In this document: positions 1-3,739 of the stretch, in pieces | Position numbering within the stretch: position 1 is the first letter of the stretch | How the letters are laid out: each line of letters begins with the position of its first letter | Assembly: GCA_951406725.2 (NCBI GenBank) | Contig: OX597821.1 | Location: forward strand, 76,012,001-76,076,000 | From: Octopus vulgaris | Taxonomy: Eukaryota | Direction: 5' to 3' | Length of the DNA stretch: 64,000 nt | Notes under the pieces: generated by a model | Databases searched by the model: none | What the model was told of the DNA's origin: nothing | Seen by the model: the letters and a program-made list of their open reading frames with translations, nothing else | Program-made: the position numbers and the translations under genes

Positions 1-825
1 TTGGTTGGCATCCTTTCAGTCTCGGGAGACCATGGAGTTGCGCATAAAGTAGTCTAGTCCTGCTTTTATATTTCATGTCCTGATACATTTCCTGCTGTGG
101 CTGTGTAGTCCTATCCTGGACAAACACTCCCTCTGGCAGGTACCGCAAATGTAGCGAAGACTGTTCCTGGCTGGTTGTAATGCCATAGTCTCTTGTTGGC
201 GTCTCTTCTTTTCTTTCCATTTCTCCTCTCTCTCTCTGTCACTCCTTTGTATTCCCTCTTTTACGGTACGTCGCCATTCTCCACGGTTGCCGGCAACTGC
301 CTCCCAACCGCTAATATTGATGTTGCAGACCTTCATGTCCCTTTTGCAAACATCCTTGTAACGTAAGATCGGTCTACCCACAGACCTAGCACCCCTAGCA
401 AGTTCTCCGTAGAGTATGTCCTTGGGGATTCTGCCATCTTTCATACGGCTAACATGCCCAAGCCATCTCATACGTCTTTGTGTGAGGAGTGCAAACATGC
501 TTGGTATTCCTGCTTGCCTGAGGACATCTTTGTTGGGGATATGATTCTGGCATTTGATGCGGAGGATTTTTCGGAGGCAGCGCAGGTGAAAGATGTTTAG
601 GCGACGCTCTTGGCGTGTGTATAGCGTCCAGGTCTCACTTCCATACAGTAGAGTGCTGAGTACACATACCTGGTAGATCTTCATTTTCGTGGTCTTGGTC
701 AGCTTATTGTTGTCCCAAGCCCGTTTGGAGAGTTGGGCCATCGCAGCAGCTGCCTTGCCAATGCGTATATTGAGCTCAGCGTCAAGGGATAGGTTGTAGG
801 TGACGGTAGAGCCCAGATAGGTAAA
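1..825 (-). mobile_element. 5'-truncated RTE-clade LINE: C-terminus of the ORF (stop at 73-75) plus 3' UTR
   Basis: ORF 73..~825 reads FTYLGS..ELNIRIGKAAAA..TKMKIYQVCVLSTLLYGSETWT..FHLRCLRKIL..RMRWLGHVSRM..IPKDILYGEL..GRPILRYKD..CGTCQRECLSRIGLHSH, typical of the RTE/BovB thumb and C-terminal zinc finger. The ORF-track N-terminus (826-909) is TA microsatellite. Confidence 0.9.
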
Positions 826-1657
826 CATATATATATATTTACCCAGATAGGTAAATATATATATATATATATATATACATAATATATGTATGTACATATA
901 TACAAGCATACAATATACATTATAGGCGCAGGAGTGGCTGTGTCGTAAGTAGCTTGCTAACGCACATGCGCAATTAGTCAGTTGCTTCCTGTTCAGCCAG
1001 AGTGGACGCGAGTCAATCAGCTCCGTCCAATTAAAGAAAAAAGACCAAAAACGGAAAGTTGTCGAGGTAAGTGATTTTGTTTATTGTGAGTTGGGCATAA
1101 TTTATTGCGTGCCAATTATTATTTCAGTAAGTTGTGTCCAACTCTGCGACAATTTCGCCTGCTCTCGGCGGCTGCTGTTTTTGTGTTCATTGAAAAAAAA
1201 AGAAAAAACAGTGGAGGGGCGTATCCTCAGAATTCAATACAGTTACTGTTAAAATTACCGTTGGCGGTAGCCAGTGCTGTGTTTGGGTTTGTTGAATTTA
1301 TTCCCTTGTCAGAGTACTTCGCAAGAAAATTATAAAAATAAGCCACTATTGAATTACCTTTCGGACCCATTTTTGTGGAGGTTGTGTTGCAGTTGCGGCG
1401 TTCTAGGTTCAACCCAGGCCGGGAGTACCGCAAGGCCAGAATATTTTTGCTGTGTTTTTTCTGTTTATTAACTTTCTTTTGAACTTCATTTAACCCCCCT
1501 TTTGTTTTTTTTCTTTATTGCGACTTTCCGTTAATTTCTTCCCTTCTGTTGTGCTTTCTCCTTTTTGTTTTTTCAAAAATCTATCAAATTTTATTTGGAC
1601 TTTTGAACTTTTTTCTTCCTGCTTTTGAGTTTAATTTGAATATATTTAAAAAAAAAC

Positions 1658-2893
1658 ATGGCAATGAAAAATAACAAAATTTTGGAGTGGGAAATCATAC
1701 CACCTAAAAAGTGGTTAAAGACCGTGAAGATAGGACGGTGGTGTTGAGAACCTACTCCAAGGCACTTGACACCATCGCCCTATTCGAAAAGACGGCAATT
1801 GAAAAGGAGTTGGAAGAGTATTTGCCAACAATTAAATTCATTTCCAGAGGTGTCAAATATGCAACGGTGTGGTTGCTATTTGACACCCCTGAAGAGGCTT
1901 GCAAATTTGCTAGCAAACCCCTGGAGGATAAGGAAATCTTATTCCTGCCCACGTACAAAAAAAAGAAATTGATGAAAGCTTGGATTTGCGGACTGCCACC
2001 CGACATAGAACCCGAGTGGTTAGAGGAGACTATCCGCCGGGGTCTGGGTGACAGCGAAACTAAGCTCCTCAATGTAAAAGTTCTTCCTGTGGCTGCTTGG
2101 GTTGGGTCAAAAGCAATTTTGACCCTGTGGACCCAATCAGCCAATCTGGTTCTTCCAGATTTTTTGAAAATGGCCGGGTGCAGGTACCCGGTGATGCTTG
2201 AGGGTCGCCCCCCTAAGTGTCATCGGTGCTTGGAGTCCGGCCACATAAAGAAGAACTGTCCTCGGGAACAAAATAGGATCCCGAAACAGTTAAGTAAAAC
2301 CCCTCTAGAAGAGGGAACGATAACGGCCGAGAAAGCAGAGGACTCCTCAAACAGAGACCGAAAGAGGAAGGTGAGCAACAATGGGTGCTCACCAAAGGAT
2401 AATAGGGATGAGGAGAGGAAGGCGAATCTTCCAGCCACGGAGGAGACGCACCCTCCCTCAGTTGAAAAGAAAAAAAAAGAAAAAGAGGAGGAAAAACGGG
2501 ACATTACCGGCTGTCAGTGTAGCACCGGAATGTCCCGGAACTACGTTGGTTGGGGTTGTGCCACCGACAAGAGAAGGAATACCGTTGGCGGAAACTGTGC
2601 CGCCAACGAAAGAACTGAACGTATTGGTCCTCTTCTATAGAGGAGGAGAAATTGAAAAAGTGATGGAAGAGCACTACAAGGGAGCACCTTTAGCCTTCAC
2701 ACAGGACCCCGAATGGCCTCCGCAGGTAGCTGTGGAGGCCGTGGCGTTCGACGTGACGCTTGGGCTAAAGGAGCTCAATGAAGATTATAACTTGGTCCCG
2801 GGCGACGCGAACTCGGAACTTGACTACGTTCTGAGGGAGGCGTGGTTGATGGTGGAGGGCGCGGGCACAAGCTATTTCGAGGACGATATGTAA
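1658..2893 (+). pseudogene. L1/Tx1-type ORF1 (gag-like nucleic-acid-binding protein with CCHC knuckle), two compensating frameshifts
   Basis: ATG at 1658 (MAMKNNKILEWEIIPPK) shifts at the A-run ~1706-1710 into ORF 1711-2640 (..YPVMLEGRPPKCHRCLESGHIKKNC..). It returns at the A-run ~2465-2490 to the original frame (ORF 2381-2893, ..ELNVLVLFYRGGEIEK..YFEDDM*). Reconstructed length about 411 aa. Confidence 0.75.
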
Positions 2894-2914
2894 TTATTGA
2901 ACTGTTATTATTAG

Positions 2915-3037
2915 TAATGGACTTAAGTCCAAAAATTGAAAAATTTTAAGAGGATTAATACCTCGTTTTGTATTAATAATGGACTGCTAAGTCCAAAAAT
3001 TGGAAAAAATTGTAAGAGGTTTAATACCTCGTTTTGT
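2915..3037 (+). repeat. Two ~60-bp direct repeats carrying hairpins in the element's 3' UTR
   Basis: taatggacttaagtccaaaaattg..gaggattaatacctcgttttgt (2915-2971) recurs at 2977-3037. Stems are tggact/agtcca and gagg/cctc. Confidence 0.85.
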
Positions 3038-3359
3038 GTTTATCTTTAAAAAGAACAATGTTTTAGAGAAGCGAAAGTCGGCGGGCGCTTTTTGTCTTCT
3101 CCCATCCTTATCATCTTTCTTTCATTATCATTCACCTCATTAATGTCCTCGTCCAGCCCGCAAAGCTAACTTAATCTGTGTACTGCCTTTATGGCAAATG
3201 TTTTGAAATAAAGTAGCTTGCTAACCAACCACATGGTTCCGAGTTCAGTCCCATTGCATGGCATCTTGGGCAAGTGTCTTCTGCTATAGCCCCGGGCCGA
3301 CCAATGCCTTGTGAGTGGATTTGGTAGACGGAAACTGAAAGAAGCCTGTCGTATATATG

Positions 3360-3411
<52 letters not shown>

Positions 3412-3739
3412 TGCCCTCCCCCCAACATCGCTTGACAACCGATGCTGGTGCGTTTACGTCCCTGTCACTTAGCGGTTCGGCAAAAGAGACTGATAGAATA
3501 AGTACTGGGCTTACAAAGAATAAGTCCCGGGGTCGATTTGCTCGACTAAAGGCGGTGCTCCAGCTTGGCCGCAGTCAAATGACTGAAACAAGTAAAAGAG
3601 TATATACACATATATTTATATATATTTTATATACTTGTATTATCCCATATATTTTTTCTCTTCTAGTTTCTGTCCAAGGACTGCGGCCATGCTGGGGCAC
3701 CGATGCACACACTGAGACACAGACACATACATGCATGCA

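Follow-up and report, generated by a model that had tools for sequence, protein, structure and literature searches.

The 2249-bp insert at 962-3210 of the Octopus vulgaris window, the 64,000-nt stretch of DNA analyzed here, belongs to a family of non-LTR retrotransposons that encode ORF1 only and lie at one fixed base of a tRNA-type SINE, just after its A-box-like motif and 22 nt into the SINE. We consider it very probable that this ORF1-only family, placed at that base, is copied in trans by an L1-group, Tx1-like element that occupies the same base. The extent of the insert and its position in a SINE head had been recognized correctly in a first-pass annotation, which had however missed that the site is a fixed target of the family and not a chance landing. 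The features of the window copy, all on the plus strand, are as follows.

925-946, plus strand: 5' piece of the target tRNA-type SINE, read from the sequence; the head is identical in 63,896 exact empty sites.
947-961, plus strand: 5' copy of the apparent 15-bp target-site duplication; in related copies the initial ~9-11 bases agree with the local target, while the remaining ones (CTAAC-type leader) go with the element subfamily.
962-1657, plus strand: 5' UTR of type A, one of three or more 5' types that are interchangeable, with one upstream ATG (966) and likely containing a putative internal promoter.
1658-2893, plus strand: ORF1; intact natural copies encode 412-414 aa, and the window copy is interrupted near 1716 and 2469.
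1735-2199, plus strand: two predicted RRM-like domains, residues ~27-181 (AlphaFold pLDDT 73-90, Foldseek).
2218-2259, plus strand: CCHC zinc knuckle after an EGRPP motif common to autonomous ORF1s (alignment; Pfam zf-CCHC, E 0.0077, below the curated cut-off).
2606-2890, plus strand: orphan C-terminal domain, conserved across ORF1-only subfamilies with 20-26% identity between the three main types.
2909-3043, plus strand: imperfect tandem duplication of ~64 bp in the 3' UTR, from a repeat search.
3066-3161, plus strand: tail block conserved among ORF1-only subfamilies, with a hairpin at 3066-3102; pairing of the hairpin loop (3081-3086) with 3156-3161 is predicted.
3184-3196, plus strand: terminal 4-bp hairpin TGCC-N5-GGCA, common to the autonomous partner (13 tails and 22 tails compared).
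3211-3600, plus strand: remainder of the target SINE, comprising target bases 3211-3225, a microsatellite middle and the tail, read from the sequence; the same 3' flank is found in sampled copies.

The SINE carries motifs that resemble, by the box consensus, an A box at 935-945 and a B box near 3243-3251. ARAGORN called a tRNA in 0/12 empty-site loci and Rfam gave none at its cut-off. Insertion places 2.2 kb between the two boxes and would silence that SINE copy. The insert is bounded by perfect direct repeats (947-961 and 3211-3225), of which the 5' one is only partly the true duplication it had been taken for. Likewise, the AATAAA seen at the 3' end is present at 3207-3212, but straddles the junction, its final two bases being the first two of the target. 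Poly(A) is lacking from the window copy, as first described, and from every sampled copy of the family. A tblastn search with the partner ORF2 gave no reverse transcriptase or endonuclease match anywhere in the window, in agreement with the earlier reading. Rfam showed no match at gathering score within 850-3650, and thus no ribozyme or known RNA in that interval. A 5' UTR intron, considered for a GT-AAGT motif near 1067, is unsupported, as no such joint occurs among the contig joints listed. Separately, a long open frame lies on the minus strand at window 73-830, and a TA microsatellite immediately before the SINE marks its 5' end; the frame had no Pfam match and resembles the C-terminal portion of a LINE that we take to be of RTE type.

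A DNA search of the animal's own genome (2.8 Gb), in which the best 40 of 3267 candidates were scored and 30 loci fetched, yielded loci 95-100% identical to the window element, and all 29 that contained the 3' end ran on into the same SINE bases. The exact tail of the window subfamily occurs 216 times in the genome and is directly followed by the target bases in 213 cases; the one non-target exception inspected was a SINE target with a point mutation. With a looser pattern covering all ORF1-only tail types, at least 567 tails adjoin the target, and 889 do so when any hairpin tail is allowed. Exact empty sites number at least 63,896. Reversed-pattern controls for these counts gave zero. We then sampled 40 tail matches: one was chosen for its absent target bases, and the other 39 were taken as they came in the list, passing over six already known. 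All 40 were located at the SINE site and 38 had a 5' target junction 1.9-2.3 kb upstream of the tail; of the other two, one had lost nearly its entire interior and one was 5'-truncated. ORF2 was found between ORF1 and tail in none of the 40, the single ORF2 match being an autonomous neighbor upstream in tandem. Since the sequence is a dispersed repeat with hundreds of copies, a processed host pseudogene is ruled out. Neither outcome that could have overturned the first-pass reading, ORF2 in other copies or a host gene, was encountered, and an ORF1-only family of the L1/Tx1 group is supported. Contigs of four runs guessed to be RNA cover the element piecewise, which does not show transcription; contigs covering it come from runs under four organism labels.

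Units are stacked head to tail within one SINE, with five in L031, where the 5' UTRs of some subfamilies consist of two or three ~180-bp repeats. One SINE at G000:C1:223688500-223706800 (L103 and beyond) holds at least seven ORF1-only units of ~2.0 kb followed by one autonomous unit of 5.45 kb. The site also harbors 5'-truncated copies (L121, L194, L196 and L200). At L121 the insertion is ~150 bp long, begins at the hairpin and holds the conserved tail block only; it is either a 5'-truncated copy or a non-coding mini-element.

The partner was obtained from loci matching the junction pattern, 20 of which were chosen for varied tails; ORF2 sequence ended at the site in five. An autonomous Tx1/L1 element sharing the 3' end, which the first-pass annotation had proposed to look for, was found among them. 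This element (L105) is 5.44 kb long, with an intact ORF1 (467 aa) and an intact ORF2 (1133 aa) carrying endonuclease, RVT_1 and zf-RVT domains. The closest solved structure to its ORF2 in the PDB is human L1 ORF2p (E 8e-67). Its exact tail abuts the target in 96 of 100 occurrences. Of 20 partner copies, three are truncated at the site and the other 17 extend to 83 nt or less from the 5' end. Mixed arrays of ORF1-only and autonomous units are present at L103, L142 and L189. Among 19 reverse transcriptases from the same genome, the three that lie at the SINE site and have intact frames group in a single starred clade, and the best named match of the partner reverse transcriptase is from Argonauta hians. 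By its domains, its two ORFs and its target preference the partner classifies as L1-group and Tx1-like, the reverse transcriptase tree being built from own-genome and mostly unnamed proteins.

At the DNA level, element and partner resemble each other in weak pieces only; one of these is the last 36 nt (78%, E 0.12), a match that BLAST by itself would not make significant. Their tails have the terminal hairpin in common. A similar hairpin also ends other octopus L1-group families, so that it is the shared base, not the tail, that names the partner. The hairpin at 3184-3196 is likely a putative recognition signal for the reverse transcriptase. In the tail block at 3066-3161, changes across subfamilies are mostly one-sided wobble changes, with one double change, and the pairing of loop 3081-3086 with 3156-3161 may form a predicted pseudoknot. 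A structured 3' UTR had been claimed for the window copy; short stems are kept across subfamilies, but the predicted fold of the last 155 nt is no more stable than that of shuffled sequences (z +0.60), and a global 3' UTR structure was rejected. Regions reached through zf-RVT (a first 20 and 20 short zf-RVT loci) contained autonomous families with no DNA match to the element. Elsewhere, L088-L090 (G000:C2:73040000-73066000) form a tandem array of another autonomous family in which units recur every ~5.4-5.7 kb; this family has a repeated 3' flank of its own, which is probably a fixed target distinct from the SINE. At G000:C1:111116890-111116969, two partner-type 3' junctions face apart with ~25 bp between them.

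The common SINE alleles vary at target positions 10-14, and this variation separates true duplication from element sequence at the 5' end. In 24 of 25 informative copies the distal part of the 5' repeat tracks the element subfamily and not the local SINE allele. Among type A/B copies whose downstream allele is unlike the usual leader, 13 of 14 keep the A/B leader upstream and one matches the local allele, and all 11 informative type C copies carry the C leader upstream. One copy (L007) shows a duplication of the local allele and then an additional leader copy. Full-length partner copies carry the same leader regardless of the allele; partner copies without a leader show target matches of ~1 to 16 bases. 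We infer a start site at which the RNA would begin with target-like sequence that aids the 5' join.

Trans-mobilization by the partner ORF2 is likely, judging from the same base, the shared terminal hairpin and the mixed arrays. In the mechanism we propose, the RNA would be transcribed from an internal 5' promoter or from just upstream and would be coated by the element's own two-RRM/CCHC ORF1 protein. The partner ORF2 would bind the terminal hairpin, nick the SINE at GT|AAG and prime on the A-rich end. The leader would aid joining of the cDNA to the target at the 5' end, which would account for the near-all full-length copies. Each insertion would regenerate the target, so that arrays could grow head to tail and subfamilies could swap modules.

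The gag-like ORF of ~411 aa that had been described holds as a single frame from the ATG at 1658 to the stop at 2891-2893, but in this copy it is spread over three frames and broken. Compared with an intact natural copy, the window copy has lost one base near 1716, where four consecutive A stand in the intact copy, and two near 2469, both of them G and adjoining an A9 run, a net length change of -3. The two frameshifts had been called compensating and placed in A-runs: both do lie at or beside A-runs, but they compensate for total length only, because translation from the ATG follows the family protein for 21 residues and ends after 29 codons. As assembled, the window copy cannot make ORF1. 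The extra A at 1716 is present in contigs of 7/8 sequencing runs, these contigs stemming from the whole family and not from the window locus. Across the family ORFs, 60 of ~117 frameshifting indels (counted after dropping 28 end-alignment artefacts) fall at homopolymer runs, which make up 4% of the ORF.

The putative RRM-like region of the first-pass annotation resolves into two predicted RRMs, and AlphaFold (17-row alignment) is confident over the N-terminal 200 residues, followed by a disordered basic linker. Foldseek with this N-terminal block returned tandem-RRM proteins as top matches (best E 4.6e-5), with a low TM to target of ~0.3. The EGRPPK-CCHC knuckle draws the weak Pfam match listed above. 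Over the N-terminal ~190 aa the protein is 25-34% identical to autonomous L1-group ORF1s (best E 2.5e-28). The C-terminal domain, unrecognized at first reading, is conserved across ORF1-only subfamilies, and no relative was found in the comparisons given below. AlphaFold modeled this part, which the first-pass annotation had singled out, with low confidence (pLDDT 43) and the model is unusable. There was no usable Atlas match, no Pfam family in any of nine sequences, none among 7997 longer candidates (weak evidence) and no profile match to the C-termini of the sampled autonomous ORF1s (probability 0.1). One protein homologue, from Octopus sinensis, covers all domains at 63% identity; a second O. 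sinensis match covers 11% of the query. In two O. sinensis gene models (P0004 and P0005) the family ORF1 appears as an 'uncharacterized protein' and as a short piece fused into an integrase-domain model; both are likely repeats annotated as genes.

Whether the common position reflects repeated targeting depends on the SINEs around the elements. Identical flanks in every copy would also be expected if SINE and insert formed a composite that the SINE's own LINE had amplified, with a position set by a single ancestral insertion, and the element-SINE Mantel correlation is weakly positive (rho 0.15, p 0.057). However, the 3' SINE flank shows a mean divergence of 8.0% across 60 filled sites, as against 7.3% for 12 empty SINEs and 2.8% for the last 600 bp of the elements at those filled sites, and even for the 385 element pairs less than 1.5% apart the SINE flanks are 7.5% different. 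All three common SINE alleles are found downstream of elements. The tandem arrays, the 5'-truncated copies at the site and the unrelated 5.4-kb element at the same base also speak against a composite unit, a reading that is already largely refuted and that we regard as hardly credible. The insertions are independent of each other. Nor does the family look like a recent internal-deletion derivative of an autonomous element with ORF1 as a passenger, which we judge very improbable. Consistent with such an origin, an intact 412-414-aa ORF is present in only 6 of 29 DNA-selected copies, and autonomous families were partly sampled (the best 150 of 25,803 zf-RVT candidates scored, 20 regions fetched). 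Yet about half of the frameshifting indels lie at the homopolymer runs mentioned above, and eight ORF1-only proteins group as a single starred clade, on a branch of 1.5 changes and apart from 13 autonomous ORF1s, in an ORF1 tree that was built without 18 near-identical copies and rooted only at its midpoint. Subfamilies without ORF2 differ by saturated dS with low dN. The dN/dS analysis among copies for which the first-pass annotation had called shows ORF1 under purifying selection: between subfamilies the ratio is 0.09-0.23 for the N-terminal part in 6/6 pairs, with dS near saturation (1.2-2.2) in five of the six, and 0.44-0.53 for the C-terminal part. For shared changes among 20 intact copies it is 0.12, these copies having been chosen by protein similarity, so that dN is biased down. 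ORF1 is 29% identical to that of the partner and 34% to that of a family not targeting the SINE, so it is not a deletion product of today's partner; an ancestor was not found among the sampled autonomous families. Subfamilies are mosaic, as in L031_5307, with an N-terminus as in L031_2858 and a C-terminus as in L103, and three 5' UTR types are found on one body. By these comparisons the ORF1-only lineage has a long history and a mosaic make-up and evolves under purifying selection. Short ORF1-like units with a family-type tail and without ORF2 also lie in tandem with other autonomous families, at L083:7250-8900 and within the first ~2.3 kb of L095 on the minus strand. The protein of the L095 unit does not group with the clade of the window family, which suggests more than one ORF1-only lineage in the genome. 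Extra ORF1-like frames were seen in L097, L100 and L085.

A lineage of this age, kept under purifying selection and with a C-terminal domain that is conserved but was not detected in autonomous ORF1s, could also be more than a rider. The Gag of HeT-A has a targeting role, and in a similar division of labor the private C-terminal domain would help to aim or package the partner RNA, making the pair interdependent. The mixed arrays would fit, as would the excess of ORF1-only tails at the site (567) over exact tails of the main partner subfamily (100), two counts from patterns that differ in strictness. Against this stand the partner's own intact ORF1, the sufficiency of cis-acting RNP formation to explain the selection, and the available text of PMC4494074, which attributes target choice of non-LTR elements mainly to the endonuclease; we hold such interdependence to be very unlikely. 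Trans-copying of the ORF1-only family by the partner remains our preferred reading. Beyond it, we tentatively entertain, as a possible but doubtful extension, a three-tier system undescribed in print: a Tx1-like cutter of the promoter of a very abundant SINE, a long-lived ORF1-only rider with a new domain and a function of its own, and, on the 5' ends of both RNAs, short leaders derived from the target that lead to full-length insertions, together making a self-renewing, sequence-specific disruptor of SINE promoters.

With hundreds of copies, several old subfamilies and one partner, the system offers a natural setting in which to ask why ORF1 is retained by an element that is not autonomous. 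It also provides an APE-type retrotransposon that hits a single base with ~96-99% specificity and inserts mostly at full length, which bears on 5' junction formation and on tools for targeted insertion. Automated annotation would likely break such elements into SINE and unknown pieces. Our literature search returned no SINE-targeting Tx1 and no cephalopod ORF1-only element, and Repbase/Dfam, subscription papers and the supplements of PMC13282606 could contain the family. According to the accessible part of that study, O. vulgaris has 13 L1-Tx1 families with recent activity (PMC13282606, Table 1), and the main text contains neither 'HAL1' nor 'nested'.

Mammalian HAL1 descends from mammalian L1 and ends in poly(A), and to our knowledge the mammalian L1 ORF1p has no CCHC knuckle. 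The octopus family is not HAL1 in the strict sense: sampled copies lack poly(A) and the full-domain homologue is from Octopus sinensis. It differs further in its invertebrate host, its strict sequence-specific target, its arrays and its two-RRM and CCHC ORF1 with an orphan C-terminal domain. What the two share is a non-autonomous, ORF1p-only organization of L1-group origin, independently acquired, HAL1 itself being described as a non-autonomous L1 derivative with several mammalian origins (PMC5753468, in the text available). For the Tx1 clade, the accessible texts report targets in transposons, U2 genes and microsatellites (PMC4494074) and zebrafish elements directed to 5S genes and tRNA spacers (PMC5340908, PMC3706591; targeting in general, PMC4640811), with Tx1 (in Tx1D), Tx1-Mar, Keno (U2), Mutsu (5S rRNA) and Dewa (tRNA spacer) as examples (PMC4494074, PMC5340908, PMC3706591, PMC4640811). 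Like these, the octopus partner is an APE-type L1-group element at a fixed site in a multicopy repeat, often a transposon or small-RNA gene. Mutsu, as described there, is ~5.5 kb long and enters 5S genes ~20 nt from their 5' end; the size of the octopus partner and its site 22 nt into the SINE are close to these values. In the octopus system, by contrast, the target is a SINE head and the commonest passenger a protein-coding ORF1-only lineage. SINEU and Tx1-Mar of crocodilians likewise combine a non-autonomous passenger, a Tx1 partner inferred from the shared target and tandem insertions, but SINEU is non-coding with an snRNA head and its target is a Mariner (PMC4494074, in the part available). 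At Drosophila telomeres, according to the accessible text of PMC13534243, ORF1-only lineages with co-located partners are widespread: HeT-A and other telomeric Jockey lineages spawn ORF1-only families that need the ORF2 of a co-located partner and form head-to-tail arrays at a fixed niche. Those elements belong to the Jockey clade, occupy chromosome ends and benefit the host, whereas the target of the octopus family is internal DNA and no role in the host is known for it. Each strategy is thus already known; the octopus family joins ORF1-only parasitism with Tx1-type site specificity on a SINE promoter, a target that our literature search did not bring up.
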